The notes beneath the pieces are model-generated. The model worked only from the letters and a program-made list of their open reading frames with translations. It did not search any database and was not told the DNA's origin. The position numbers and the translations under genes are program-made. A stretch of 61,121 nt of DNA from Alphaproteobacteria bacterium (GTDB lineage Bacteria > Pseudomonadota > Alphaproteobacteria > Rickettsiales > SXRF01), in the NCBI GenBank assembly GCA_020054105.1, contig JAGVLW010000013.1, forward strand, positions 1-61,121. The letters are read 5' to 3'. This document shows, in pieces, positions 5,742 through 37,399 of the stretch. The stretch's first letter is position 1, and the number at the start of each line of letters is the position of its first letter.

Positions 5742-5832
5742 AAGTCGTTAGTTGATAGTCGTTAGTCGTTAGTATATGCATGGGCACAGCAGAATAACAA
5801 GCTATAGACTAATGACTCACGACTAACGACTT
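5742..5832. repeat. Heptamer-built palindromic element (AGTCGTT family), copy 1
   Basis: Left arm agtcgtt-agttgat-agtcgtt-agtcgtt-ag. The right arm gactaatgactcacgactaacgactt is its imperfect reverse complement. Fills the divergent SDR/ccmC intergenic region. Confidence 0.85.
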
Positions 5833-6545: not shown

Positions 6546-6621
6546 TTGCAAACCACATGAACACGCGATATATAGGCGGTCCGATTCATTCCTAACGACT
6601 AAGGACTAACGGCTAATGACT
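6535..6621. repeat. Heptamer-built palindromic element (AGTCGTT family), copy 2
   Basis: Left arm ttagtcgttagttg overlaps the ccmC stop. Right arm ctaacgactaaggactaacggctaatgact overlaps the fdxA ATG. Confidence 0.8.
6546..6574 (+). promoter_or_regulatory. Putative sigma70 promoter of fdxA
   Basis: TTGCAA-N17-TATATA, located between the arms of the heptamer palindrome. Confidence 0.55.
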
Positions 6622-6948
6622 TTCGTTGTCACCGACGCCTGCATCAAATGCAAATATACCGACTGTGTGGAAGTCTGCCCGGTGGACTGTTTCTATGAGG
6701 GCGAAAATATGCTCGTCATTAACCCCGACGAATGCATCGATTGCGGCGTGTGCGAGCCGGAATGCCCGGTGGAGGCCATTCTTCCGGAGTCTGACGAGAT
6801 GCTCAAATGGGTGGAGCTCAACCGCGAATATGCCGCCAAATGGCCCAATATCACCGTGAAGAAGCCCGGCCCGGCCGATGCCGACAGCCATAAGGGCGAG
6901 GCGGGCAAGTTCGAAAAATACTTCAGCCCGGCGCCCGGCGGCAGCTGA
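6616..6948 (+). CDS. fdxA: Ferredoxin FdxA (7/8Fe)
   Basis: [29 protein letters not shown] and [12 protein letters not shown]. Upstream of carD, as is usual in alphaproteobacteria. Confidence 0.95.
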
Positions 6949-9240: not shown

Positions 9241-12150
9241 TCACGCCACCTTCCGGCCCTTTTTCAGCATCGGCTTCAAATATTCGCCGGTGACGCTTTC
9301 CTTGTGTTTGGCGATGTCTTCCGGCGTGCCGCTGGCGACGATCCGGCCGCCTTTATTGCCGCCGCCGGGGCCGATATCTAGTATCCAGTCGGAGGTCTTG
9401 ATGACGTCGAGATTATGCTCGATCACCAGCACCGTGTTGCCGGCATCGACCAGCGTATGCAGCACGCCAAGCAGCTTCTTGATGTCGTCGCTATGCAACC
9501 CGGTGGTCGGCTCGTCGAGAATATAGAGCGTGCGGCCGGTGGCGCGCTTGGACAGTTCCTTGGCAAGCTTGATGCGCTGCGCCTCGCCGCCGGAAAGCGT
9601 CGTCGCCGACTGGCCGATGGCTATATAGCCGAGCCCGACCTCCTGCAGCGCCACGAGCTTTTCGCGGATGGAAGTCTGCGCGGTGAAAAACGCCGCGCCC
9701 TCATCGACGGTCATCGCCAATACTTCGGAAATCGATTTGTCCTTATATTTGATGTCGAGCGTCTCGCGGTTATAGCGTTTGCCGTGGCAGACGTCGCATT
9801 TGACATAGACGTCGGGCAGGAAATGCATCTCGATTTTGATGAGCCCGTCGCCCTGGCAGGCCTCGCAGCGCCCGCCCTTGACGTTGAACGAGAAACGCCC
9901 GGCCTGATAGCCGCGCGCTTTGGCTTCGGGCAGCGCCGCGTACCAGTCGCGGATGGGGGTGAAGGCGCCGGTATAGGTGGCCGGGTTCGAGCGCGGCGTG
10001 CGGCCGATGGGCGACTGGTCGATCTCGATGATCTTGTCGATGAACTCGAGGCCCGAGATGCTGTCATGCGCGCCGGGCATGTCGCGGCTGCCATGCATGC
10101 GTTTGGCGATGGCCTTGTAGAGCGTCTCGATCACCAGCGACGACTTGCCGCCGCCGGACACGCCGGTGACGCAGGTGAAGGTCGCCAGCGGAATCTCGGC
10201 CTTGACGTTTTTGAGGTTGTTGGCGCGCGCGCCGTTGATGACGATTCTTTTTGTCTTGTGAATCGGGCGGCGCGTTTCCGGCACGGCGATGAATTTCGCG
10301 CCGCTTAGATATTGCCCGGTCAGGCTGTTCTTGGTGTTCATCACCTGCTGCGCCGTGCCCTGGGCGACGATATGCCCGCCATGAATGCCGGCGCCGGGGC
10401 CGATATCGATCAGATGGTCGGCATGGCGCATCGTGTCTTCGTCATGCTCAACGACGATTACGGTGTTGCCAAGGTCACGCAGGTGCCGCAGCGTGTGCAA
10501 CAGGCGCGCATTGTCGCATTGATGGAGGCCTATCGATGGTTCATCCAATACATAGAGCACGCCGGAAAGCCCGGAGCCGATCTGCGAGGCGAGGCGGATG
10601 CGCTGCGATTCGCCGCCTGAAAGCGTGCCGGCCTCGCGCGACAGCATCAGGTAATCGAGCCCGACATTCATCAGGAATTTGAGCCGCTCGCAAATTTCCT
10701 TGAGGATCTTCTCGGAAATCTGCTGGTGCTTTTTGGAAAGTTTTTTCTCCAGCCTGGCGAACCAGTCATGCGCGGCGGTGATGGTAAAATGCGTTACCTC
10801 GCCGATATGCAGCCCGTCGATCTTGACGCAAAGCGATTCCGGCTTGAGGCGAAAGCCCTTGCAGGTTTCGCAGGGATGCTCGTTCTGGTATTTGGCGAAT
10901 TCCTCGCGCACATTGTCGCTGGTCAGCTCGCGGTAGCGCCGCTCCAGGTTGGGGATGACGCCCTCGAACGGTTTTTGCACGGTAAAATGGCGCGAGCCGT
11001 CATTATAGGTCATGCGCACTTCTTCGTCGCCGGAGCCGTGGAGAATGATGTGCCGCACTTTTTCCGACAGCTCCTTAAACGGCGTATGCAGGCTGAACTG
11101 AAAATGCTTCGCCAGCGATGCCAGCGCATCCTGGAAAAACCGCGTATTGCCCGCCCACGGCATTCCGCCCCACGGCACGATGGCGCGGTCGGCCAGTGTC
11201 TTATTGCGGTCGGGAATAATCAAGTCGACGTCGAATGCCGATTGCGTTCCCAGCCCGTCGCAGGCCGGGCAGGCGCCATACGGGCTGTTGAAGGAAAACA
11301 GCCGCGGCTCGATCTCCGACAGGGTGAAGCCGCTTACCGGACAGGCAAACTTGCTGGACATGGTGAAGGTAACGGGTAACGGGTTACGGGTTACAGATTT
11401 ATTTTTATCTGTGTCCTGTTTTCCGTTACCTGTTACCTCTACTCGAACCAGTCCTTCTCCCAGCCCCAGCGCCGTCTCGATGGAATCCGCCAGCCGGTTG
11501 CCCAGTTCTTTATTGACCACGATGCGGTCGACGACCACTTCGATTTCGTGTTTCTTGTTTTTATCCAGTGTCGGCAATTCGTCGGCTTCGTAGAGCTTGC
11601 CGTTGATCTTGAAGCGTTGAAAACCCTTCTTTTTAAGCTCGGCGAATTCCTTGCGGTACTCGCCCTTATGGCCGCGCACTACCGGCGCCAGCAGCATGAG
11701 CTTCGTGCCTTCGGGCAATTCCATGACGCGGTCGACCATCTGCGACACGGTCTGGCTCTCGATAGGCAGGCCGGTGGCGGGCGAATAGGGAATGCCGATG
11801 CGGGCATAGAGCAGGCGCAGGTAATCGTAGATTTCGGTGACGGTGCCGACCGTCGAGCGCGGGTTGCGCGAGGTGGTTTTCTGGTCGATGGCAATGGCCG
11901 GCGAAAGCCCGTCGATGGATTCGACGTCGGGCTTGTCCTGGATGTTGAGGAACTGGCGGGCATAAGACGACAGCGACTCGACATAGCGGCGCTGGCCCTC
12001 GGCGTAAATCGTGTCGAACGCCAGGCTGGATTTGCCGGATCCGGACGGGCCGGTGATGACCACCAGCTTGTTGCGCGGAATCTCGACGTCGATATTCTTG
12101 AGGTTATGTTCCTTGGCGCCGCGGATGGTGATGTATTCGTCTTTTTTCAT
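9241..12150 (-). CDS. uvrA: Excinuclease ABC subunit UvrA
   Basis: Two ABC ATPase modules ([18 protein letters not shown]), LSGGESQR and LSGGEAQR signatures, zinc-finger Cys motifs. Confidence 0.98.
11368..11437. repeat. In-frame heptamer palindromic element inside uvrA (GGTAACR family)
   Basis: 70 nt: a 29-nt arm of 4 heptamers, a 12-nt AT-rich loop, and an inverted 29-nt arm. Encodes [23 protein letters not shown]. Confidence 0.85.
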
Positions 12151-12257
12151 GGATTCCCTTGTTTTTTTAAAGCGGCGGATGGTATCAAATAATCGCTGGC
12201 GTGTAACGTACTTTTACGCTTATATGGTGCGGAATTAATATTTTTTAAAGAGATCTA

Positions 12258-12704
12258 ATGCCGCCCACCGCCGCCATAGACAGAAACAGCATTATCGCTG
12301 AGCTAAGAACGCGCGGCAGGCAGCTTGGCCGTGAGGGAATGACCCTCCTGATTAATAAGGCAGGAGTAAGCGGCGGCGATCCAGGTTCTGAAATGCCGCC
12401 CGTCAATCATCAGGCAGGCGAGTTTGGAAGCTTTGAAATGTCCTGGCCTTTGGCGGGCGGCGGTTTGCCGGAAATGATTAGAGACTACCTGATGCAGGAA
12501 GGAATCATTACCAGCACCGTAGCCGCTACCAGCTACACTGGCCGTACGGCTTGCCTGCAGTTAAGCAGCCCGCAACAGGTTGCGGCGGTGAAGGCATTAT
12601 TTGAAGAGGCGGGGTTCTGGGAACATATCGCCATGGTGGATATTAACAGGTCGCGCATCCCCAACCTGCTTGAGAATCCCTTTGCCAGCAAAGCGAGAAA
12701 ATAA
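12258..12704 (+). CDS. Hypothetical protein
   Basis: 148 aa orphan between uvrA and ssb. No recognisable motif. Confidence 0.6.
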   Translation: MPPTAAIDRNSIIAELRTRGRQLGREGMTLLINKAGVSGGDPGSEMPPVNHQAGEFGSFEMSWPLAGGGLPEMIRDYLMQEGIITSTVAATSYTGRTACLQLSSPQQVAAVKALFEEAGFWEHIAMVDINRSRIPNLLENPFASKARK

Positions 12705-12743
12705 TACAACAACCGATACGATTAACCTAAGAGAGGACATAAT

Positions 12744-13202
12744 ATGGCAGGCAGCGTAAATAAAGTGATTCTGGTGGGAAATCTGGGACGCGACCCGGAA
12801 GTGCGCTCAACGCAAGACGGCCGCGAAATCGCCAACCTGGCGATCGCCACCTCGGAATCGTGGAAAGATAAAAGCACCGGCGAGCGCAAGGAAAAAACCG
12901 AGTGGCACCGCGTGGTGATCTTCTCGGAAGGGCTGGTTGGCATCGCCAAGAATTACCTGAAAAAAGGCTCGAAAGTCTATGTTGAAGGCCAGCTGCAAAC
13001 GCGCAAATGGACCGACAAGGAAGGCCAGGAGAAATATTCCACGGAAGTGGTGCTGCAAGGCTTCGGCGCGACGTTGACCATGCTCGATAGCAAAGGCAGC
13101 AGCGGTGGCAGCAACGATAATGCGAGCTACAACCAGGACCGCGCCCCGGCGCCCGCTTCCAAACCCGCCGCCGAACTGCTCGACGACGAGATTCCGTTTT
13201 AG
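12744..13202 (+). CDS. ssb: Single-stranded DNA-binding protein
   Basis: [30 protein letters not shown] and C-terminal DDEIPF. Confidence 0.98.
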
Positions 13203-13220
13203 TCTCTTTTTCGCCGGATT

Positions 13221-13997
13221 ATGAGCATCATCACGGATGTAAGAACGCTGGCGATCATGCTATCCGCCTTTGTTCTGGCCGTGCTATGCATTTTGCCCGG
13301 CACGCGTGAGATTTTTCCTTTCTGGCTTATCGCTTCGGGTATGCATATCGCAGGCACGCTGTTTCACGAGCTGGGGCATAGCCTGTTTTTCTGGCTGGCG
13401 GGCATGCCATCTATTCCCATGATTTTTACGCTCTTCGGCGCCGACCAGGCTGGCGGCATGGCCATGACGTTTGAGCGCAGCTGGCTGTTGCAATGGCTGA
13501 TGTTCGCGGCGCTCGGCGGTTTCTGTTACTGGATAAGGCATCATTGGGAGCGCATGTTCATTCCCGCCGTGCTTTTCTCGCTCGTCGTCGCGGCGCTGGC
13601 CTTTACGCCGTACTACAAGGTGCTGCCGCTTTTCATGGGCCATGGCAGCGCGATTGTCATGGGCGGATTTTTCCTGTTCAGGGCGTGGATTTACCTCGAT
13701 GCGAGAAACGCTTTCGAGCGTTGGCTGAACGCATTTTTCGGCGCGTTCCTGGTATTATACAACATGCATTTCAGCTATAAGCTCATCGCCGAAGACGGCG
13801 CGCTGGCGCGTTACAGCGAGCATGTGGCGTTCGGCATCGGCCATAATGACTTTGTGAAAATAACCCACATTCTTCCTGTAAGTGTCCAGGGCGTCGCCGC
13901 CATCGCCATCTGCTTATGTCTGGCGGCGCTTGTGTTGTCAGCATGGTTGGCCGTGTTGCTGCGCAACGATTTCCCCGACAGCTACGAAACGCTTTAG
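13221..13997 (+). CDS. Membrane metallopeptidase, M50-like
   Basis: HELGH zinc motif within a TM segment, several TM helices, and a distal NDF motif. Confidence 0.6.
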   Translation: MSIITDVRTLAIMLSAFVLAVLCILPGTREIFPFWLIASGMHIAGTLFHELGHSLFFWLAGMPSIPMIFTLFGADQAGGMAMTFERSWLLQWLMFAALGGFCYWIRHHWERMFIPAVLFSLVVAALAFTPYYKVLPLFMGHGSAIVMGGFFLFRAWIYLDARNAFERWLNAFFGAFLVLYNMHFSYKLIAEDGALARYSEHVAFGIGHNDFVKITHILPVSVQGVAAIAICLCLAALVLSAWLAVLLRNDFPDSYETL

Positions 13998-14461
13998 CGG
14001 TAGATGACTACCGTTCCAGCGATGTAATCGTGCAGCGCGCGTTTCCTGGGCGTAAAAGCCGCCATCACATAGCCCATCAATAAAATGAGAGTTGAAATGA
14101 GATGCCCAACCTCTCTAAAAATTGCTCGAAACAGCCCGACTCTCTCGTAATCTTTAGTGGCCACCATGATGCCTACCACCTTTTTGCCGAGCGTGCCCTG
14201 CATTGGGGAAGCTGTGAGGATAATGTTGTAAAGAATAAACAGAAGAGAAAACAATAAATTGATGAGGCTGTCGTCTTCCTTCGCAGTATCATTTTCCAAG
14301 CTTGCAGTCATTTCCTGCACAAAAGCAGCATCCGGGAATAATTTAATAATCAAGACGAAGAAAATAGTTCCCATGACTAGTAAAAAAATACCGTCCAGTA
14401 TCACGGCGGCTAATCTGATCCAAAAGCCCGCAGGGCGTGGCTGATACATAGTTGCATTCAT
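13994..14461 (-). CDS. RDD family membrane protein
   Basis: AGFWIRLAAVILD, GTLGKKVVGI, RAIFRE and ALHDYIAGTVV signatures. Confidence 0.9.
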   Translation of the reverse strand: MNATMYQPRPAGFWIRLAAVILDGIFLLVMGTIFFVLIIKLFPDAAFVQEMTASLENDTAKEDDSLINLLFSLLFILYNIILTASPMQGTLGKKVVGIMVATKDYERVGLFRAIFREVGHLISTLILLMGYVMAAFTPRKRALHDYIAGTVVIYR

Positions 14462-14570
14462 GGCAAACCCTTTCCATTGGTTATCGGATTTTCCGATTTA
14501 TAACAGCAAGGTATTGAGAAAGATTTAATGATTGCGGGCAGCGGTTACGCGCGTTCCTTAAGATGGACGG

Positions 14571-15122
14571 TCACGTCCTGCCGCGCTCGGCGAAGATCAT
14601 GGAAGATTGGCGGGCGCTTTGCCTGCAGATGTCTTTTATCGCCTGGACGGCGCCGTCTATGTGTTTGTTTTCGATGCTGTAGGTAAATACATAACGGCCG
14701 CCGAAGTAGTCTTTCATTTTCTCTTTGTCGAATGTCTGATTGAACCCTTCGCCATCCTCCGTTCGCCTGACTGCCTTCAATTGCCGTTTTTCCGCATTTT
14801 CAAACAGCTCATAGGCGCTATCGAGTGTGGAAGCGACGATACGAACGCCGTTTTTTATAAAAATCTGATCGAGCTGCTCTTTAAGTTGTGCCCTGTCTAA
14901 TGGCGCAAGATCTTCTTCCGCCAACGGCTGCACTTCTATTTTTATAGTAAAGATGGGCTTTTTTTTAAGTTCTTCTTTATTGATCGTGATTTCTACGTCT
15001 TCTTTTCCACCATCCTGAGAACGACGAACAACCTGCGTCCATTTCCGGTCTAAGAAACCCTTATTATTGACGACGCCACATTCAATGTCGCAATAGCAGT
15101 CGAAAAGCAGCATGGGAATCAA
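14571..15122 (-). CDS. Hypothetical protein
   Basis: About 180 aa orphan coupled to the upstream hydrolase (start TTG 15122 or ATG 15113). C-terminus FAERGRT. Confidence 0.6.
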   Translation of the reverse strand: MIPMLLFDCYCDIECGVVNNKGFLDRKWTQVVRRSQDGGKEDVEITINKEELKKKPIFTIKIEVQPLAEEDLAPLDRAQLKEQLDQIFIKNGVRIVASTLDSAYELFENAEKRQLKAVRRTEDGEGFNQTFDKEKMKDYFGGRYVFTYSIENKHIDGAVQAIKDICRQSARQSSMIFAERGRT

Positions 15123-15805
15123 TCTCTCGGCAGCTGCCGGCGTTTGCGGTCGGGGCGAACTTTGCGTTTCTGCTTGAAGTCGGCCAGGCGCTTGCCGACA
15201 TACTCGCTGACGACGTTGCCCATATCTTCCTCGACGCCGCGATAGTAATGATCGGCGCCGGCGATGAGCTGATAGTCGACCTGCGTGCCGAGCTTATGGG
15301 CGAGCTTGCTGACCACTTCTTCCGAAACTACATCGTCCTTATCGCCCTGGGTGATGAGGCCGGCGGCGGGGCAGGGGGAGAGAAAAGAAAAATCATAGAG
15401 ATTAGCGGGCGGCGAAACGGCGACGAAGCCTTCCAGTTCGGGGCGGCGCATCAGCAGTTGCAGCGAGATCCAGGCGCCGAAAGAAAATCCGGCGATCCAG
15501 CAGGTGGGCGCATCGGGATTTTGTTGTTGCAGCCAGTCCAGCGCGGTGGCCGCATCCGACAGCTCGCCGACGCCTTCGTCGTATTTTCCCTGCGATTTGC
15601 CGACGCCGCGGAAATTGAACCGCAGCACGGAAAAGCCGTTCTGGGCAAAAATATGATAGAGCCGGTAAACCAGCTTGTTATTCATGGTGCCGCCGTAAAG
15701 CGGGTGGGGATGCAGCACCAGCACGATCGGCGCGCCTTTATGATCGCTATGGTGATAACGGCCTTCGATGCGGCCTTCGGAACCGTTAATAATGATTTCT
15801 GGCAT
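15119..15805 (-). CDS. Alpha/beta hydrolase (isc-associated family)
   Basis: HPHPLYGGTMNN, RFNFRGVG, nucleophile elbow GFSFG, and GADHY. Divergent from cysE-iscR, as usual in alphaproteobacteria. Confidence 0.9.
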   Translation of the reverse strand: MPEIIINGSEGRIEGRYHHSDHKGAPIVLVLHPHPLYGGTMNNKLVYRLYHIFAQNGFSVLRFNFRGVGKSQGKYDEGVGELSDAATALDWLQQQNPDAPTCWIAGFSFGAWISLQLLMRRPELEGFVAVSPPANLYDFSFLSPCPAAGLITQGDKDDVVSEEVVSKLAHKLGTQVDYQLIAGADHYYRGVEEDMGNVVSEYVGKRLADFKQKRKVRPDRKRRQLPRD

Positions 15806-15865
15806 GGTGTGTACGTTTTTTACTTGTAATAGGAACGTTTACATTGATCGGAATGGCGCGATATA

Positions 15866-15890
15866 TTACCCTGACCTATCAATTAGGTGC
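15866..15890. promoter_or_regulatory. Possible IscR/Rrf2 operator upstream of cysE-iscR
   Basis: TTACCCTGACCTATCAATTAGGTGC contains the imperfect dyad ACCTA..TAGGT and resembles type-1 IscR sites. Resemblance only. Confidence 0.3.
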
Positions 15891-15915
15891 GTAGTTATAT
15901 TGAATTTGGTGGTCA

Positions 15916-16611
15916 ATGTTCAAGAGAATAATAGATGACGTCGATTCCGTTTTCGCCCGCGACCCGGCCGCCCGCTCGCGCCTGGAAATATTCCTGTGCT
16001 ATCCCGGCATCCACGCGCTAATATTTCATAGATTATCCAATTGGTTATGGAGGGGTGGCTTCAGGCTGTTCGGCCGGTTTATTTCCGGCATCGGCCGTTT
16101 TCTGACCGGCATCGAGATTCATCCCGGCGCGTCCATCGGCCGGCGATTTTTCATCGATCACGGCATGGGGGTGGTCATCGGCGAAACCTCGACCATCGGC
16201 GACGACGTTACCATTTATCATGGCGTGACGCTGGGCGGGACGTCGCTGCGCAAGGAAGTCCGCCATCCGCAGATCGGTAACGGCGTCATTATCGGGGCGG
16301 GGGCGAAACTGCTCGGGCCGATAAAGATCGGCGATTTCGCGCGGATCGGCAGCAATGCCGTGGTGGTCAAGGACGTGGAGCCCGACCAGACGGTGGTGGG
16401 CGTGCCGGCGCGCGCCGTGACCGCCCAAAGCGCCGTCCACGATCATGGGTTCGAGCCTTACGCCGCCTCGCCGGGCGAGGATACCGACCCGATGTTTAAA
16501 ATCATCAGCCAGATGCAGCAAACGGTCGACCTGTTGCAGCGGCGCGTGACGGAACTGGAAGGCGACGACGCCTCGCTGCTTGACAGCGCCAGAAAATGGG
16601 AACCCAAATGA
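15916..16611 (+). CDS. cysE: Serine O-acetyltransferase
   Basis: [32 protein letters not shown] and hexapeptide repeats. Confidence 0.95.
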
Positions 16612-17075
16612 TATTAGGAACCAAAGCGCGTTACGCGGTCATGGCCATGGTCGAGCTGGCCGGGCGCGATCCCGAAAAACCGGTGACGCTGGCGCAACTG
16701 GCCCTGTCGCAGGAAATCACCGTGCCCTATCTCGAGCAGATTTTCAGCAAATTGAAACATCGCGGGTTGGTCGTTTCGGTGCGTGGGCCGGGCGGCGACT
16801 ATGTGCTGGCGCATAGCGCCGACGATACCCGCATTTCCGACATTATCGAAGCGGTGGAAGAGCCGATCAAGATGACGCGCTGCGAGAACCATGCGGGCGA
16901 GGGTTGCCTGAGCAAAAAAACGCGCTGCCTGACGCACGATTTATGGGATGGGCTAGGCAAGCAAATTTACGGCTATCTGCACGGCATTTCTCTGGCCGAC
17001 GTGCGCAGCGGCAAGCTTAAGTCAGGCCGAGTTCCCGATTTTCAAGCGGCGCGGCCGTCATCGTCTCCAGCGTAG
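16608..17075 (+). CDS. iscR: Rrf2 family Fe-S cluster regulator (IscR-like)
   Basis: ATG 16608 overlaps the cysE stop (ATGA). [23 protein letters not shown] and Cys/His ligands C..C..CLTH are present. Confidence 0.85.
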
Positions 17076-17727
17076 AGAAAAAAAACGTCTGGTAAAGCCT
17101 GCCGTCGGTAATTTCGCTGCCCCAGCCCGCCGCGCCGCTATGCGGAACGCTGCCGCGATGCAGGATCAGCCGGTTATAGACGTTGGCGTAGCTATCGACC
17201 AATTGCCAGTTTTCCTTGGGCGTAAACCGCTCTTCGTTATTGCCCGATTTATTTTGCCAGGTGAACAGGCCGGTATTATGCGGCGCATGTTTATTGAGAT
17301 AAATAATCCCCGCCCAGCCATCGGCGCCCGCTGCGTTCCACGGATCACCTTCGGTGTGATTATGCACCGCTTCGCCCAGCTCTTGCGGATGGTGTTTGAC
17401 ATGGAAAGCGCAGTTCCACCAGGCGCTGCGCGGCTGTTTCTCATAGCCGGGGGCGGGCAGCCCCAGCGCATCGGTCGGAAAGCTCAGCTGCCATTTTTTC
17501 AGGTCGATGCGCTCGCCGGTGAGGAATTCGAGCTTGGCGATAAGCGCCTCCGACGATTTAAACGGGCATTGGGTTGCTTCCTTGAACCGGCTGGTGCGCC
17601 ATAAGATAGTATTTGGATTGTTGGGGGATTTATTGTACGGGGTACAATAATTTTGCGTCATGGCGTAGCGCGCCACCGCGTCGGGCTCGGCATAAAAATC
17701 GTCGGCAATGATGATGTTTCGTTTCAT
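17017..17727 (-). CDS. 2OG-Fe(II) oxygenase superfamily protein (DUF6445-like)
   Basis: IIIADDFYAEPDAV, H-T-E metal motif, WAGIIYLN, NVYNRLILHRG..PH, and RLYQTFFF. Confidence 0.7.
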   Translation of the reverse strand: MKRNIIIADDFYAEPDAVARYAMTQNYCTPYNKSPNNPNTILWRTSRFKEATQCPFKSSEALIAKLEFLTGERIDLKKWQLSFPTDALGLPAPGYEKQPRSAWWNCAFHVKHHPQELGEAVHNHTEGDPWNAAGADGWAGIIYLNKHAPHNTGLFTWQNKSGNNEERFTPKENWQLVDSYANVYNRLILHRGSVPHSGAAGWGSEITDGRLYQTFFFSTLETMTAAPLENRELGLT

Positions 17728-17769
17728 GACTATGTTCTATATAATAACCCGTTTGGATTTGAAATCACA

Positions 17770-18930
17770 ATGAGCAGCCCGATCTATCTCGACTATAACG
17801 CCACCGCACCCGTTCGCCCCGAGGTGCTGGCCGCCATGCACGAAATCTTGCAGCAACCGGCGAACCCGTCCTCGGTGCATCGTTTTGGCCGGGAAGCGAA
17901 GAAACACCTGGAAAACGCCAGAAAAACCATCGCCGATGCCGTCAGCGCCTTTGTCAACGAGGTCATTCTCACCGCCTCCGCCACCGAGGCGAATGCCCTG
18001 GCGCTGCGTGGGTTTCCTGGACGGCGCGTGCTGGTAAGCGCGGTGGAGCATAGTTCGGTACTTAAGGTAACGGGAAGCAGGAAACAGGACACGGAAAATG
18101 CATCATCACCTGTAACCTGCAATCTGTTACCTGTTACCTCGTTCGGCGTCGTTGATCTGAATGCGCTCAGGTTAATGCTTTCCGAAAACACGCAGCCGGC
18201 ATTGGTCTCGGTGATGCTGGCCAATAACGAAACCGGCGTTATACAGCCGATTGCCGAACTGGCGGCCATTTGCAAAAAATATGATGCGCTGCTGCATTGC
18301 GACGCCGTGCAGGGCTTGGGAAAAATCCCGGTAGATTTCGGGTTGCTCGGTTGCGATATGATGACGATTTCGCCTCATAAATGCGGCGGGCCGGTGGGCG
18401 CGGCAGCGTTGGTCATTAAGCAAAACCTGGCGATTGCGTCCTTGCTTACCGGCGGCGGCCAAGAGCTTGGACGACGGGCGGGAACGGAAAATTTGGCTGC
18501 CATTATCGGCTTCGCCAGGTCGGTTCAGTTAACTGACTTATCGCATATGAAACGCCTGCGCGGCTGGCTGGATGCGATGGAAACAGCCGTTGCCTCACAA
18601 GGCGGCATCGTATTCGGCAAAGCCGTTTCCCGCCTGCCCAATACCAGTTGTATCGCCATGCCGGGCGTGTCAAGCGAAGTTCAGCTGATGAATTTCGACC
18701 TTCAGAACATCGCCATTTCCGCCGGTTCCGCCTGCTCATCGGGAAGAATCGAGGTTTCCCATGTGCTTGCCGCCATGTGCATAGATAAGGGGTTGGCCGG
18801 CAGCGCTATTCGTGTCAGCGGCGGCTGGCAAACCACTCAGGAACATGTTAAAATATTTAGTGAAAACTGGCAAAACACCTATGCCAGGCTGGGAAAAGCT
18901 GATATAAGAATTTCCTCGGCTAATAGTTGA
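17770..18930 (+). CDS. Cysteine desulfurase family protein (NifS/IscS paralog)
   Basis: Start at MSSPIYLDYNAT. NNETG, DAVQ, PLP lysine in SPHKCGGP, catalytic SAGSACSSG. Confidence 0.92.
   Translation: MSSPIYLDYNATAPVRPEVLAAMHEILQQPANPSSVHRFGREAKKHLENARKTIADAVSAFVNEVILTASATEANALALRGFPGRRVLVSAVEHSSVLKVTGSRKQDTENASSPVTCNLLPVTSFGVVDLNALRLMLSENTQPALVSVMLANNETGVIQPIAELAAICKKYDALLHCDAVQGLGKIPVDFGLLGCDMMTISPHKCGGPVGAAALVIKQNLAIASLLTGGGQELGRRAGTENLAAIIGFARSVQLTDLSHMKRLRGWLDAMETAVASQGGIVFGKAVSRLPNTSCIAMPGVSSEVQLMNFDLQNIAISAGSACSSGRIEVSHVLAAMCIDKGLAGSAIRVSGGWQTTQEHVKIFSENWQNTYARLGKADIRISSANS
18066..18138. repeat. In-frame heptamer palindromic element inside the cysteine desulfurase gene (GGTAACR family)
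   Basis: 73 nt: two 29-nt inverted arms of 4 heptamers and a 15-nt loop. Encodes VTGSRKQDTENASSPVTCNLLPVT. Confidence 0.85.
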
Positions 18931-18961: not shown

Positions 18962-20197
18962 ATGAAAAACGCTGCCAACAGCAATTTGAAGTTCCCGATT
19001 TACCTGGATTATCAGGCCACCACGCCGATGGATCCGCGCGTGCTCGACAAAATGCTGCCTTATTTCACCGAAAAATTCGGCAATCCGCATTCGCGCAGCC
19101 ATAGTTACGGCTGGGAGACAGAGGCGGCTTGCGAGCTGGCGCGCAGCCAGGTTGCGCAGCTCATCGGCGCCACCGAGAAGGAAATCGTCTTCACCTCCGG
19201 CGCCACCGAGTCGAATAATATCGCGATTAAGGGCATGGCGCATTTCTACAAAGACAAGAAAAACCATATCATCACGCCGGTCACCGAGCATAAATGCGTG
19301 CTCGATTCGGCGCGCCATCTCGAGCAGGAAGGCTTCGAAGTCACCTACCTGCCGGTACAAAAAAACGGGTTGATCGATCTGGACGTCCTGCGCGCGGCGA
19401 TAAAGGAAAATACGCTGATGGTGTCGGTGATGGCAGTCAATAACGAGATCGGCGTCATCCAGCCGCTCGCCGAAATCGGCAAGCTCTGCCGCGAGAAAGG
19501 CGTGTTTTTCCATACCGACGCGGCGCAGGCTTTCGGCAAAATTCCGCTCGACGTCGAGGCGATGAATATCGATTTGATGAGCATCTCGGGACACAAGATT
19601 TACGGGCCCAAAGGCATCGGCGCGCTGTATGTGCGCCGCCGGCCGCGCATCCGCCTGGAAGCGATATTCTCCGGCGGCGGCCAGGAGCGCGGCTTCCGCT
19701 CGGGCACGCTGCCGACGCCGCTGGTCGTGGGTTTGGGCGAGGCGGCGCGCATTGCCAAGGAAGAAATGGGCAAGGACGCCCTGCATGTGCGCAAGCTCTA
19801 CAACAAATTCCTCACCGAGATTCTCGACGGCGTAAAAGACGTCTATCTCAACGGCGACCGCGAGGCGCGCTGGCCCGGCAACATCAATCTGAGCTTCGCT
19901 TACGTCGAAGGCGAATCGATGATCATGGCGATCAAAGACCTGGCCGTATCGAGCGGCTCGGCCTGCACGTCGGCGTCACTGGAACCGAGCTATGTATTGC
20001 GCTCGATCGGCGTCGGCGAAGAGCTGGCGCATACCTCCATCCGCTTCGGCGTCGGCCGGTTCACTACCATGGAAGAGGTGGAATTTGCGATCAATCTGGT
20101 TAAAAATTCCATCGACAAGCTGCGCGAAATGAGCCCTCTATGGGAAATGGTGCAGGAAGGCGTGGATATATCGAAGATTGAATGGGCGGGACATTAG
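18962..20197 (+). CDS. iscS: Cysteine desulfurase IscS
   Basis: [44 protein letters not shown] and C-terminal IEWAGH. Confidence 0.97.
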
Positions 20198-20507: not shown

Positions 20508-20909
20508 ATGGCATATTCAGAAAAAGTAATCGATCATTACGAGAATCCGCGCAACGTGGGCTCGTTGGACAAGGGCGATAATTCCGTCGGTACCGGCCTG
20601 GTCGGCGCGCCGGCTTGCGGCGACGTGATGAAACTGCAAATCAAGGTTGACGAGAAAACCGGCATCATCCAGGACGCGAAGTTCAAGACCTTCGGCTGCG
20701 GCTCGGCCATCGCTTCGAGCTCGCTCGTCACCGAATGGGTCAAGGGCAAGACGGTGGATGAGGCGATGCAGATGAAAAACACCGAAATCGCCGAGCATCT
20801 CTCGCTGCCGCCGGTGAAGATTCATTGCTCGGTGCTCGCCGAAGACGCCATCAAGGCGGTGGTCGCCGATTATAAGAGTAAGCATGGAGCGAAGAGCGAC
20901 GCCGCTTAA
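20508..20909 (+). CDS. iscU: Fe-S cluster scaffold IscU
   Basis: YSEKVIDHYENPRNVGS, GAPACGD, GCGSAIAS and LPPVKIHCS. Confidence 0.98.
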   Translation: MAYSEKVIDHYENPRNVGSLDKGDNSVGTGLVGAPACGDVMKLQIKVDEKTGIIQDAKFKTFGCGSAIASSSLVTEWVKGKTVDEAMQMKNTEIAEHLSLPPVKIHCSVLAEDAIKAVVADYKSKHGAKSDAA

Positions 20910-20911
20910 CA

Positions 20912-20984
20912 AAGTCGTTAGTTGTGAGTCGTTAGTCTTTAGCGACTTACTTGACTAACGACTATCGACTAAGGACTAACGACT
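20912..20984. repeat. Heptamer-built palindromic element (AGTCGTT family), copy 3
   Basis: Left arm aagtcgttagttgtgagtcgttagtctttag, right arm gactaacgactatcgactaaggactaacgact. Fills the iscU-iscA spacer. Confidence 0.85.
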
Positions 20985-20987
20985 ATT

Positions 20988-21323
20988 ATGGCCACACCCG
21001 TCATTTCCATCTCAGATAATGCCATGTCGCGCATCCATGCGCTGCTCGACAAGCGCGGCAAGCCGTCGGCCGGCGTCAAGATCGGCGTGCGCACGCGCGG
21101 CTGCTCGGGGCTTGCTTATACGATCGAATATGCCGACGAGGTGAATAAGTTCGACGAGGTGGTGGAAAAAGACGGCGTAAAAGTGCTCATCGATCCCAAA
21201 GCGATCATGTTCCTCATCGGCACCGAAATGGATTATGTCGAGGAAAAACTCAAGAGCGGCTTCGTTTTTCGCAATCCCAATGAAAAAGGCCGCTGCGGCT
21301 GCGGCGAGTCCTTCCACGTTTAA
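20988..21323 (+). CDS. iscA: Fe-S cluster assembly protein IscA
   Basis: RGCSGLAY, FLIGTEMDY and CGCGESF. Confidence 0.95.
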   Translation: MATPVISISDNAMSRIHALLDKRGKPSAGVKIGVRTRGCSGLAYTIEYADEVNKFDEVVEKDGVKVLIDPKAIMFLIGTEMDYVEEKLKSGFVFRNPNEKGRCGCGESFHV

Positions 21324-21838: not shown

Positions 21839-23704
21839 ATGTCCCACCTGCTGCAAATACACGAACCCGGCCAGACGCCGCTGCCGCACGAGGATACGGC
21901 GGCCGTGGGCATCGATCTGGGCACCACCCATTCGGTCGTGGCGATCGCATCGGGCGAGCGCGCCGAGGTCGTCCATAACATCCACGGCCATGCGCTGGTG
22001 CCGTCGGTGGTGTATTACGGCGAAGACGGCCTCGTCGAGGTGGGCTACCCAGCCAAGAAACGTTACGAGGCCGGGCAAAAGGGCGCTATCGCCTCGATCA
22101 AGCGACTGATGGGCCGCGGCGTCGAGGACATCAAACCGTTGCTGGGCAACATGCCTTACGAAATCGCGCAGCAAGCAGGCATCGTGCGCATCAAGGCCGG
22201 CGGGCGCGAAGTCACTGCTGTCGAAGTGTCGGCGGAGATTCTGAAAGAATTGAAAAAAAATGCCGAGCGGGCGCTGGGAAAAGAGGTGACGAAAGCCGTC
22301 ATTACCGTCCCCGCCTATTTCGACGATGCCGCCCGCGCCGCCACCAAGGATGCAGCGAAATTGGCCGGGTTGGAAGTATTGCGCCTCATCAACGAACCGA
22401 CGGCGGCGGCGCTGGCTTACGGGCTGGATAAGGGCGCCCAAGGCATTTATGCGATTTACGATCTGGGCGGCGGCACGTTCGACATTTCGCTGCTGAAGCT
22501 GGAGCAGGGCGTGTTCCAGGTACTCTCCACCGGCGGCGATACGGCGCTCGGCGGCGACGATTTCGATCAGGCGATTGCCGCCTGGTTGCTGGCCGAACTC
22601 AAGCTGGGCGCTACGGCATTGCGTAGCGAAGAGGTAGGCGCGCTGGTGGCGCTGGCGCGCGAAGCCAAGCACCGGCTGAGCACGGAGGAAAGCACGCTTT
22701 TGCAATACCGCGAAAAATCCATCGCCATAACGCGGCGGCATTTCGACGATCTGATTACTTTATATGTCGATAAGACGATCGCCGTCTGCACGCAGGCGCT
22801 CGCCGATGCCAAATTATCGACGGCGGACATTAAAGGCGTCGTCATGGTCGGCGGCTCGACGCGCGTGAAGCTGGTCATCGAAAGAGTAGGGGAGTTCTTC
22901 AGCAAGCCGCCGCTGACCGACGTGAACCCGGACGAAGTGGTCGCGCTCGGCGCTGCGATCCAGGCATACGGCCTTACGCAAGGCTCGGATAATCTCTTGA
23001 TCGACGTCATTCCGCTGTCGCTCGGGCTGGAGACGATGGGCGGGCTTTGCGAAAAAATCATCGAGCGCAATACGCCGATTCCGGTGTCGGTATCGCAGGA
23101 ATTCACGACCTATCAGGACGGCCAGACCGGGATGCAGCTGCAAATCGTCCAGGGCGAGCGCGAAATGGTCGCCGATAACCGGTCGCTGGCCAAATTCGAG
23201 CTGGCGGGTATTCCGCCGCTGCCGGCCGGGATTGCGCGCATCAAGGTGACGTTTAGCGTCGATGCCGACGGGCTACTGACCGTCTCGGCGGAGGAAAAAA
23301 CCACCGGCGCGCGCCAATCCGTTCATGTCAAGCCGGCCTATGGGCTTGCACCGGAGCAGATCGAGAAAATGCTGCTCGATAGTATGCAAAACGCGCAAAA
23401 AGACATGAATGAGCGGTTGCTTGCCGAGGCGAGGGTAGAAGCCCGGCGCGCGGTCATCGAGCTGGAATCGGCGGTGAAACAGGATGGCGACCTGCTGAGC
23501 GATGCCGAGCGCAAGCAGGTCGAGCGCCAGATTGCCGTGGTGCACACCGCCGCGCAGGGCGATGACCGCGACTACATCGCCGCCGAGATGCAGGAGCTTG
23601 GCCGCATCGCCGCCGGCTTCGCCGAAAGAAGAATGGACAGGGCGATAGGCGTTGCGCTAAAAGGGGCGCATATAGACACTGTGGAGACCAAGAAACATGC
23701 CTAA
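21839..23704 (+). CDS. hscA: Fe-S assembly chaperone HscA
   Basis: [11 protein letters not shown] start, [26 protein letters not shown] and VGGSTR (Hsp70). Confidence 0.96.
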
Positions 23705-35533: not shown

Positions 35534-37111
35534 ATGCTCCACTTCCCCCGCTGGAAAATCATTCTTATCGTCGGCACCTGCCTGCTATTCGTGGTGTTTG
35601 CCATTCCCAGTTTTTTAAGCGAACAAACGCGTGAGGCATTGCCGAAATGGTTGCCGCACCGCGCCGTTAGCCTTGGACTTGACCTGCAGGGCGGCTCGCA
35701 TCTGCTGCTCGAAGTTGATTTCGAGGCCTATCTGCGCGAGCAGCTGGTCAATGCCGTCGACGACGTGCGTGGCGTATTGCGCGAAAATAAAATCGGCTAT
35801 CGGGGCCTAAGCGCCGGCGACGGAAGGATCATATTTGCCTTGCGCGAGGAGAGCAGCGCCGACGTAAAACAACTCCTCTATAAACTCAACCCCGATCTCG
35901 ACGTTGCGCAGGACGGATTGAATTATACGCTAAGCTTTAATGATAAATGGCAGCAGGCCAGCCGCCAGCGCGTGCTTGAGCAGTCGCTCGAAATCGTCAG
36001 CCGCCGCGTCAACGAGACCGGCACCAAGGAGCCGATCATCCAGCGCCAGGGCGATAAGCGCATCGTGCTGCAAGTGCCCGGCCTTTCCGATCCGGAGCAT
36101 CTGAAAAACCTGCTGGGCCGCACCGCCAAAATGACTTTTCATCTGCTCGACGAGACGGTGGGCTATGAGGACATCGAGCGCGGCATCGCCCCGGCGGGCA
36201 CGCGGATTATTGTCGGCGACGATCACGACAAGCGCAGCGAGCGCCCGAACAAATACGCTGTTTTAAGCAAGGTGATGCTTTCGGGCGACCTGCTGGTCGA
36301 TGCGCATACCAGCTATGACGGGCAGACCGGCGAGCCGGTCGTCGCTTTCCGCTTCAACAATGCCGGCGCACGCAAGTTCGGTGAGATCACTGCCGCCAAT
36401 GTCGGCAAGCCTTTTGCCATCGTGCTCGATAATAAAGTCATCACCGCGCCGGTCATCCGCTCGCCGATCATCGGCGGCAGCGGCATCATCAGCGGCAATT
36501 TCACCGTGGAATCGTCCAACGATCTTTCGCTGCTGCTGCGCGCCGGCGCGCTGCCGGCGCCGCTGAAAATCATCGAGGAACGCTCGGTCGGCCCGAGCCT
36601 AGGCGCCGATTCGATTGCCGCCGGCGTGAAAGCCTCGATCATCGGCATCGCGCTGGTCATCACGTTCATGGTGGTATTTTACGGGCTGTTCGGCATGTTC
36701 GCCAACATCGCGATGCTCGTCAACGCCTTCATGACGCTCTCTCTGCTTGCCATGTTCGAGGCGACACTGACGCTGCCGGGCATCGCCGGCATTGTGCTGA
36801 CGGTCGGCATGGCGGTCGATGCCAACGTGCTTATTTACGAGCGCATGCGCGAGGAAATTCGCAACGGCAAATCGCCCTATGCAGCGGTGGAAGACGGTTT
36901 CCGCCTGGCTTTCGGCACGATCTTCGACAGCCACGTCACCACGCTGGTGGCGGCGCTGATCCTGTTCCAGTTCGGCACCGGCACGGTCAAGGGCTTTGCG
37001 GTGACGCTGGCGATCGGCATCGTCTGCTCGCTCTTTACCGCCGTTTTGGTCACGCGGCTGATGGTGGTGAGCTGGCTGAAATGGAAACGCCCGAAGACGC
37101 TGGCGATTTAG
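35534..37111 (+). CDS. secD: Protein translocase subunit SecD
   Basis: Start MLHFPRWK. LGLDLQGG, RRVNETGTKEP, LRAGALPAP, VGPSLG and DANVLIYER. No fused SecF half. Confidence 0.96.
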   Translation: MLHFPRWKIILIVGTCLLFVVFAIPSFLSEQTREALPKWLPHRAVSLGLDLQGGSHLLLEVDFEAYLREQLVNAVDDVRGVLRENKIGYRGLSAGDGRIIFALREESSADVKQLLYKLNPDLDVAQDGLNYTLSFNDKWQQASRQRVLEQSLEIVSRRVNETGTKEPIIQRQGDKRIVLQVPGLSDPEHLKNLLGRTAKMTFHLLDETVGYEDIERGIAPAGTRIIVGDDHDKRSERPNKYAVLSKVMLSGDLLVDAHTSYDGQTGEPVVAFRFNNAGARKFGEITAANVGKPFAIVLDNKVITAPVIRSPIIGGSGIISGNFTVESSNDLSLLLRAGALPAPLKIIEERSVGPSLGADSIAAGVKASIIGIALVITFMVVFYGLFGMFANIAMLVNAFMTLSLLAMFEATLTLPGIAGIVLTVGMAVDANVLIYERMREEIRNGKSPYAAVEDGFRLAFGTIFDSHVTTLVAALILFQFGTGTVKGFAVTLAIGIVCSLFTAVLVTRLMVVSWLKWKRPKTLAI

Positions 37112-37399
37112 ATGACTGGATAACCGGATGACTAGATGACTAAGAAATTATCGTGTAAAATACCTTGGTCATCTAATCATCTATTCATCTATTTTATGGG
37201 GCGATTTAGATGACTGGATAACCGGATGACTAGATGACTAAGAAATTATCGTGTAAAATACCTTGGTCATCTAATCATCTATTCATCTACTCTATGGGGC
37301 CATTTAGATGACTGGATAACCGGATGACTAGATGATTAAGAAATTATCGTGTAAAGTACCTTGGTCATCTAATCATCTATTCATCTAGTCATCTACTTT
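37103..37399. repeat. Three tandem 98-bp copies of an octamer-built palindromic element
   Basis: Copies start at 37103, 37201 and 37299. Each has degenerate TAGATGAC x4, a 27-nt loop, and degenerate GTCATCTA x3-4. The copies differ at a few positions. Confidence 0.92.

Follow-up and report, generated by a model that had tools for sequence, protein, structure and literature searches.

The window analysed here, 61,121 nt of contig JAGVLW010000013.1 (assembly GCA_020054105.1; Alphaproteobacteria bacterium, Rickettsiales, SXRF01), holds a uvrA gene and a gene for a NifS-like cysteine desulfurase, each of which carries in its reading frame a palindromic segment built from 7-nt units. The question that this locus raises is what these segments are, why they encode the same kind of peptide in two unrelated proteins, and how they came to lie there. 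The source genome (hereafter G000; related genomes carry other G numbers, and the contigs of G000 carry C numbers) is a 2.22-Mb draft of 113 contigs with a GC content of 57% and a completeness of 99.6%. We consider it likely that both segments are copies, lacking a gene, of a selfish palindromic element of the 23S rRNA intervening sequence (IVS) type, spread by unit-specific copying that is tied to elements carrying a PF05635 gene.

Both copies comprise four GGTAACN units, a loop and four inverted units, with arms of 29–30 nt (coordinates are given in Table 1). In the sense orientation, the uvrA copy reads GGTAACA GGTAACG GAAAACA GGACACA G, followed by a 12-nt loop (ATAAAAATAAAT) and CTGTAAC CCGTAAC CCGTTAC CCGTTAC C. 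The nifS copy reads GGTAACG GGAAGCA GGAAACA GGACACG G, followed by a 14-nt loop (AAAATGCATCATCA) and CCTGTAA CCTGCAA TCTGTTA CCTGTTA CC, and its inverted arm ends CTGTTACCTGTTACC. The encoded peptides are residues 241–263 of UvrA (23 residues, VTGNGKQDT...PLPVT) and, in the desulfurase, VTGSRKQDTENASSPVTCNLLPVT (pattern VTGSRKQDT...LLPVT). Over 108 nt the uvrA copy folds with −36.6 kcal/mol on the sense strand and −50.1 kcal/mol on the antisense strand, and the nifS element folds with −27.8 kcal/mol. An earlier note on this DNA had reported these sequences, their lengths of 70 and 73 nt and their translations, all of which we recovered on rereading the DNA. It had also assigned the two segments to one repeat family lying in the translated frame, and this is supported by the identity of the arms (22/27 positions for the left arms and 23/29 for the right) and by the intact host open reading frames (ORFs). 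The closest relative of each within G000 is a third copy (C49:12658 for the uvrA copy and C58:19543 for the nifS copy); therefore, the two are members of one family and not a recent duplicate pair.

Both host proteins are full-length. UvrA displays the UvrA_inter, UvrA_DNA-bind and ABC_tran domains, with the insert residing between the UvrB-interaction domain (Pfam, residues 133–239) and the cysteine pair SSKFACP; compared with Geobacillus UvrA (2r6f), it amounts to 17 extra residues in a hairpin turn, between VIGEGE and LLF. The NifS-like protein is spanned by Aminotran_5 (residues 5–363) and keeps both the pyridoxal phosphate-lysine motif HKCGGP and SAGSACSSG. The expectation that the inserts lie in surface loops agrees with the hairpin turn of 2r6f and with a low-confidence loop in the AlphaFold model of the NifS-like protein.

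The two copies belong to a much larger population. Matches to GTTACCNGTTACC at up to two mismatches number 10 in the window against 1.28 expected, and 10 was reached in 0 of 100 shuffles. With the Rfam covariance models, only tRNA scored above threshold in the window between 5000 and 40000, with nothing at the hairpins. We scanned the whole draft for strict 7- and 8-nt arrays and sought an inverted partner for each within 700 nt, using the 99th percentile of the null as the cut-off. This gave 256 arrays (216 of period 7 and 40 of period 8), which, together with the four units per arm of the uvrA and nifS copies, match the description of dispersed heptamer repeats of the SSR (simple sequence repeat) or STRR (short tandemly repeated repetitive sequence) type, in which 7-nt units stand in tandem, typically four at a time. 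An inverted partner above the cut-off was present for 196 of the 256, and these collapse to 125 hairpins, mostly 55–120 nt long; the units comprise 73 canonical heptamers. For 42/125 hairpins there is a spanning ORF, counted as such if it runs through the hairpin, extends at least 40 codons to either side and has a normal GC content by codon position.

Five unit families, which take in 93 of the 125 hairpins, each have a copy that carries a gene of the PF05635 family (23S rRNA intervening-sequence protein, S23p/Avd-like). G000 has five such genes, every one of them flanked by inverted arrays, and the unit differs from gene to gene: AGTCGTT, GTGRCTC, GGGGATT, GGAAWTGA and, on contig C13, GGTAACG/GGTAGCA/GGTGACA/GGACACA. 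The last is the full-length element of the GGTAACN family, with its PF05635 gene at G000:C13:11154-11477. The left arm of the nifS copy is identical to the C13 cassette arm at 23/27 positions and the uvrA arm at 22/29 (76–85%), whereas alignment to the other four cassettes gave scores of 7 or less, which is background. In five related genera, 14/14 full-length PF05635 genes are likewise bracketed by inverted arrays, of other units. Close PF05635 proteins have common units, hence the arms diverge along with the gene. The right arm of the GGGGATT cassette (G000:C4:2925-3365) enters the start of purK (N-terminus ...LPPIPNPQSPIPP...), so cassette arms can overlap gene ends.

To place the C13-type protein, we searched one genome per species with a six-protein alignment as the query, which yielded 74 full loci in Alpha-, Beta-, Gamma- and Deltaproteobacteria, Nitrospira and Patescibacteria. 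Inverted arms stand beside the gene in 74/74 (median score 25, compared with 8 in outer-flank controls), the best arm period is 7 in 56 loci and 8 in four, and a CAG[AG] core is common. Helix 45 of 23S rRNA holds 52 of the 74, which are classical intervening sequences; these true helix-45 elements have heptamer stems with units such as TTCAGAT GACAGAT, and their proteins are up to 68% identical to the C13 protein. In Coxiella, the 23S intervening sequence has a 28-bp terminal stem and an S23p ORF and is excised by RNase III, and its stem contains tandem GACAGAT heptamers whose number differs among strains (PMC4990558). The general design is shared: a stem of about 28 bp, formed by about four 7-nt units on one side of a loop and four inverted ones on the other, with the gene for a four-helix-bundle PF05635 protein in the loop of the full form.

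The uvrA and nifS copies have the stem length (arms of 29–30 nt) and the tandem heptamers of this design. Their loops of 12 and 14 nt hold no PF05635 ORF, and they lie in protein genes and not in helix 25 or 45 of 23S rRNA; the displayed flanks of the five G000 cassettes also show no likeness to 23S. From the match to the C13 arm, the position of related PF05635 loci in helix 45 and the anatomy of the Coxiella element, both copies are therefore read as gene-less, non-rRNA members of an IVS-type element with the family unit GGTAACN/GGTGACN. We also looked for an intervening sequence in the 23S rRNA of G000 itself, but its draft contains no assembled 23S gene; those of G005 and G018 are without a large insert. 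Identical cassettes in Testudinibacter and in deltaproteobacterial genomes, considered as possible proof of transposition, turned out to be rRNA operon copies, with no dispersed insertions.

The likeness of the two peptides is built into the 7-nt unit and does not reflect an insertion preference. Three heptamers make seven codons, and all three frames give one periodic peptide of seven residues, shifted by one unit; since 7 = 1 mod 3, the same peptide results whatever the frame, and no frame-specific insertion is implied. The arrays being palindromic, the opposite strand reads alike, and the uvrA copy is open in the mirrored antisense frame as well. A targeted search of G000 found at least 20 in-gene copies of the GGTRAC family that encode VTG[DN][RG]KQVT[DE]-loop-SVT[RC][NH]P[LS]PVT or its phase-shifted form. 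Their hosts include UvrA, NifS, GpmI, a UbiG-like methyltransferase (two copies), HisF, exonuclease III/Xth (two), MurD (two) and PurK, and further hosts assigned by eye are PolA, PurL, RNase R and a GltD-like protein. The earlier note had stressed that the element is translated in the same frame in both genes. That the peptides are alike is correct, but the frame is not special, since every frame and strand of a heptamer array reads alike and at least 20 further copies do the same.

What does constrain the copies is their stop content. One unit in every three brings the TAA of GGTAAC or the TGA of GGTGAC into frame, and exactly there the in-gene copies have GGAAAC (K), GGTGGC (W) or GGTATC (Y) instead. 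A copy would persist in a gene if its net length is a multiple of three, its in-frame TAA or TGA is mutated, and the loop into which it falls is tolerant. The coding share differs between families, with 14/23 GGTAAC hairpins in ORFs and 4/21 of those built from AGTCGTT. The C-rich arm of GGTAAC contains no stop, and both AGTCGTT arms contain TAG and TAA; stop content may underlie the differing coding shares. The polA ORF on contig C41 contains in-frame hairpins of three unit families at about 20878–20978, 21157–21243 and 22661–22747, with the peptides GIRDQASGIRE...SPNPQSPIPN, VTGDGIRVTE...SPLPVTCHLSP and ELKKKESIVPQFLNSSIPQF.

In the desulfurase, the element was proposed to have replaced native sequence as well as being inserted, by reference to the strand TYLPVQ of the neighbouring iscS paralogue, which is indeed present. 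NifS has a net gain of about 13 residues from an element of 24, and UvrA one of 17–18 from an element of 23; as these gains fall short of the element lengths, some native codons were overwritten or lost. The AlphaFold model of the NifS-like protein has a mean pLDDT (predicted local distance difference test) of 89, with insert residues 100–117 forming the low-confidence loop (pLDDT below 50 at 108–114). The strand that reads [IL]-P-V in orthologues is formed here by residues Asn118–Leu120 and Val122, which derive from the last right-arm units; this L-L-P-V strand is encoded by CTG TTA CCT GTT, and Val122 is at least 90% conserved. The right arm thus replaces the native I-P-V strand, which supports the proposed replacement. 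The native site is already unit-like in relatives (GTA ACG CCC ATT CCG GTG in G007 and ATT CCT GTC ACC in G001), which may reflect insertion or conversion at microhomology or, equally, may reflect the survival of only those copies that preserved P-V.

The two strands of the in-gene copies have also fared differently. The sense hairpin is weaker than the antisense hairpin in 31 of 36 in-gene copies (Wilcoxon p ~1e-6), and the mismatches in the sense-strand stems are 79 A.C against 27 G.U, with an A+C content of 55.6%. Selection on the host protein would push the sense strand towards A and C, which give hydrophilic codons and a weaker mRNA duplex. An intact mRNA duplex would be a substrate for RNase III, the gene for which (rnc) is present in G000, and A.C mismatches break the duplex. 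The asymmetry may therefore stem from hydrophilic-codon pressure, duplex-breaking pressure, or both. A transcription-linked C-to-T (deamination) bias was rejected because it predicts sense-strand G.U pairs, the opposite of what is seen.

Comparison with orthologues shows sites that are filled, empty or differently filled. Orthologues without the repeat have no such peptide, in both the UvrA and the NifS comparisons, as expected if the peptides derive from the repeat. At uvrA, the site is short (GGER-ITF) and free of an insert in G004, G005, G007, G009 and G011, and is likewise without a hairpin in G012 and the outgroups. Hairpins of other units occupy it in G018 (GGTKATC), G001 (GGGATTC), G002 (GGTGACG) and G013 (AGTSGTK), and decayed remnants are present in G006, G010 and G014. 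In the UvrA tree, G000, G018 and G001 form one clade with the empty G007 (support 100/99). A K/D-rich uvrA insert (e.g. SLPDTDGKKKSKKDKDEDAAHKKGD) was also observed a few residues upstream of the hairpin site in L006, L015, L017, L018 and L019 (G016 and other families of the order).

The uvrA site is empty in 5/5 genomes of the bacterial family that lack PF05635 and has an insert or remnant in 8/10 that have it. For array counts we used 100-kb samples in place of 10-kb orthologous loci, which are too small a sample; no arrays were present in 400 kb from four PF05635-less genomes, compared with 17 in 400 kb from four PF05635-bearing ones, and the density in G000 is 11.5 per 100 kb. This co-occurrence of PF05635 and hairpins is suggestive, the counts being taken among kin genomes and amounting to no formal test.

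At NifS, the heptamer hairpin is present in G000 only, among 27 orthologues. In metagenomic NifS-like homologues, the positions after residue 99 and near residue 276 are hot spots for palindromic-repeat-like peptides of other kinds, for example of the SLRGSE..AIQ..NWIAS and PLPxGEG/GRG types. As other repeat-like peptides thus occur at the same site in distant homologues, the insert loop is a generally tolerant spot.

The murD gene of G000 (contig C104, L199:1357-1500) shows a further arrangement, a split palindrome whose arms (GGTGACG GGTGGCG ... and ...CCACCTGTCACC) lie around 83 nt of native coding sequence that is common to all orthologues. In each of four genera (G000, G001, G012 and G008) the arms form 30–34 long-range pairs, and the four units are unrelated (GGTGRCG, GGGATTR, GGCATTA and AGYTGGC). 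These pairs come from per-sequence folds; the arms pair in shifted registers, so that no column pair is common to the four sequences. G004 has no arms and G007 has a decayed pair. Within a genome, one family recurs at different sites, as at uvrA, nifS and murD of G000 (all GGTRAC) and at uvrA and murD of G001 (both GGGATT), and the murD unit of G012 is that of a resident PF05635 cassette.

Beyond the two copies, the window contains AGTCGTT-family hairpins and an octamer hairpin (Table 1). The first of these AGTCGTT hairpins is assigned to the same superfamily as the GGTAACN elements, and the family has its own PF05635 cassette on contig C26. The octamer copies are 90–100% identical to each other and belong to a family without a PF05635 cassette in G000.

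Table 1. Hairpins, arrays and host genes located in the window.
Feature	Position	Strand	Parts or basis
GGTAACN-family hairpin in uvrA, 70 nt	11368..11437	-	G-rich arm 11437-11409, loop 11408-11397, C-rich arm 11396-11368 (sense orientation)
GGTAACN-family hairpin in NifS-like gene, 73 nt	18066..18138	+	left arm 18066-18094, loop 18095-18108, right arm 18109-18138
uvrA, 969 aa, intact	9241..12150	-	ORF and Pfam
NifS-like class-V aminotransferase/cysteine desulfurase, 386 aa from MSSPIYLDY, intact	17770..18930	+	ORF and Pfam
iscS paralogue, repeat-free (comparison for native TYLPVQ strand)	18962..20197	+	
AGTCGTT-family intergenic hairpin	5742..5832	.	inverted-repeat scan of the window
AGTCGTT-family array, one copy (CTAACGACT...)	6592..6632	.	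direct- and inverted-repeat scan
AGTCGTT-family intergenic hairpin	20913..20984	.	inverted-repeat scan of the window
Octamer (AGATGACY) hairpin, three tandem 98-nt copies	37102..37395	.	direct-repeat scan

How, then, did the copies arrive? Under the reading that we favour, a selfish IVS-type element, copies would spread, or be overwritten, by unit-specific copying tied to the resident PF05635 elements, and the arms rather than whole hairpins would be what the process acts on. The loops of the in-gene copies are unrelated to each other, AT-rich and, in the sense strand, K-rich. Arm-wise copying would explain both these unrelated loops and the murD arms around native sequence. The unrelated loops, the split arms of murD and the recurrence of one family within a genome together argue against a simple transposition of whole hairpins and against purely local evolution, and fit a copying or overwriting of arms in a unit-specific way.

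Several points weigh against this reading. Transposition itself was not seen: neither a target-site duplication (junctions judged by eye) nor a transposase was found, nor any species in which a copy is present in some members and absent from others. The closest NifS homologue among 5.8 billion proteins is only 68% identical, which leaves no close strain with an empty site. Unrelated loops are unexpected from cut-and-paste or copy-and-paste of a whole hairpin. No resident PF05635 cassette of G001, G018 or G013 matches the unit of the respective uvrA insert, and G012 has seven PF05635 cassettes yet few arrays. The differing units at uvrA and murD in related genera could indicate evolution in place instead of repeated arrival, and both the translation of the inserts and their cleavage by RNase III are points that we infer.

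Known mobilisers were also considered and rejected. A Y1/RAYT transposase (REP-associated tyrosine transposase; REP, repetitive extragenic palindromic) has no candidate, since PF01797 gave no match in G000, which is 99.6% complete. A miniature inverted-repeat transposable element is not indicated, there being no direct repeats at the junctions examined by eye, and the sole associated gene, PF05635, being no known transposase. PF05635 has homology to Avd, the accessory protein of diversity-generating retroelements (PMC10053308), and a reverse transcriptase was considered as a partner of the Avd-like protein. G000 has a lone reverse transcriptase (G000:C109:11422-12771; L078/L220), whose best matches, all weak, are to defence-type DRT/UG models. 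A homologue is present in 5/31 relatives, including the PF05635-less G005, and missing from hairpin-rich G018, G012, G002 and others; the enzyme thus shows no co-occurrence with the hairpins and no link to PF05635.

The strongest of the alternatives, although we judge it improbable, is that these are old coding palindromes that evolved in place. Each site would have a single origin, such as a native short inverted repeat, with unit turnover by slippage, correction of the arms by template switching and no movement between loci. The orthologous uvrA sites of related genera, with their five different units (GGTAACN, GGTKATC, GGGATTC, GGTGACG and AGTSGTK), would be expected from such a history, as would the four unrelated units that form 30–34 pairs around the same 83 nt of murD, the unlike loops, the unit-like native NifS site of G007 (GTA ACG ... 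CCG GTG) and G001 (ATT CCT GTC ACC), and the strain-dependent heptamer number in Coxiella (PMC4990558). It predicts, however, that units are specific to their locus, whereas 93/125 hairpins fall into five genome-wide families and the sites within a genome are alike. The restriction of the NifS insert to G000 among the 27 orthologues and the lack of arrays in related genomes without PF05635 also speak against it.

We regard it as very unlikely that the host selects the module, keeping the peptide or the mRNA stem for a function common to UvrA and the desulfurase (a binding tag, for instance) or for expression control. The recurrence of one peptide in many enzymes would be in keeping with this, as would the strong stems alongside RNase III. 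The insert is nonetheless a low-confidence loop that most orthologues lack, relatives carry unrelated peptides at the same site, and the peptide follows mechanically from the DNA unit. Moreover, the sense stems are the degraded ones, with A.C mismatches, which argues against selection for mRNA structure. That repeat-induced misjoins in a metagenome-assembled genome placed copies into both genes is scarcely credible even for a 113-contig draft with one PF05635 element (C13) at a contig end, given that both genes stay in frame with stop-purged units particular to each copy, the flanks on either side continue the same gene, and independent assemblies of related genera, some of 1–10 contigs, have hairpins at the same uvrA and murD sites.

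The copies, taken as members of a selfish IVS-type element, can be compared with systems already described. They resemble the 23S IVS/S23p elements of Coxiella burnetii and Leptospira (PMC4990558) in the tandem-heptamer stem of about 28 bp, and the full forms have the same protein family in the loop and a length of 430–480 nt with the ORF. Unlike those elements, which RNase III excises, both copies lack an ORF, lie in protein genes and are apparently read through by the ribosome. G000 also differs in having about 125 copies in several unit families, with full-length cassettes outside rRNA as well.

The earlier note had likened the segments to the Rickettsia palindromic elements (RPEs; PMC10969869), and the likeness holds: in both, palindromic repeats with a conserved peptide stand in frame, at tolerated positions, in many unrelated housekeeping genes, here with at least 20 copies in the GGTRAC family and about 42 over all families. 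The host is also alphaproteobacterial and has a Rickettsiales-like type IV secretion system. RPEs are set apart by their description, as they are about 100–150 bp long with a family consensus and no short tandem units, whereas the elements here are 70–73 nt and heptamer-built. No associated protein gene is known for RPEs, in contrast to the PF05635-carrying form seen here, with its peptide dictated by the 7-nt unit.

The same note recognised no heptamer-built equivalent; such repeats have in fact been published, for Xanthomonas (PMC4692102) and for the Coxiella IVS stem (PMC4990558). The heptamers GGGAATC of Xanthomonas and GGGGAYT (STRR) of Nostoc show a preference for four units, and about 70 pairs in Xanthomonas are convergent (inverted). 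They are intergenic and under-represented in coding regions, and were read as G-quadruplex or regulatory sites (PMC4692102). The tandem 7-nt units and the preference for four are shared with G000, where GGGGATT and GGGATTC families also occur; PMC4692102 reports neither a PF05635 link nor in-frame translation. TAACTGA repeats are direct, with none inverted (PMC4679880).

REP/BIME (bacterial interspersed mosaic element) and REPIN sequences with their RAYT gene (PMC3333891, PMC3116915) are similarly short, abundant palindromes with a single associated gene flanked by repeats. They differ in being extragenic, not heptamer-built and served by a Y1 transposase, which G000 is without; PF05635 is a four-helix bundle with no known catalytic activity. 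Already known, therefore, are in-frame palindromes (Rickettsia, PMC10969869), inverted heptamers (Xanthomonas, PMC4692102) and S23p intervening sequences (rRNA, PMC4990558). The literature searched holds no account of IVS-type stems in protein genes, nor of a link between heptamer repeats and PF05635.

The origin and spread of the 23S intervening sequences and of the S23p gene have been an open question since about 1990. G000 ties these sequences to heptamer repeats and adds a third context, with such stems standing in frame in dozens of housekeeping enzymes; in one case in hand, a structural strand of an enzyme is encoded by repeat DNA. With five cassettes that each have a cognate unit family, with orthologous sites in sister genera that are occupied, vacant or occupied by another unit, and with split arms around native sequence, this is a testable system, in which palindrome copying, the role of the PF05635 protein and the way in which repeats become protein loops can be addressed. 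More tentatively, and with more doubt than confidence, we suggest that IVS/S23p elements at large are widespread self-propagating palindromes whose arms of 7-nt units are recognised, and copied or overwritten unit-specifically, by their own PF05635 protein. If true, the arms as the copying unit could bracket any loop, be it an AT-rich spacer, a PF05635 gene, the tip of an rRNA helix or, as in murD, a native protein segment, and IVS/S23p elements would be a general and recurrent source of new protein loops across bacterial phyla.

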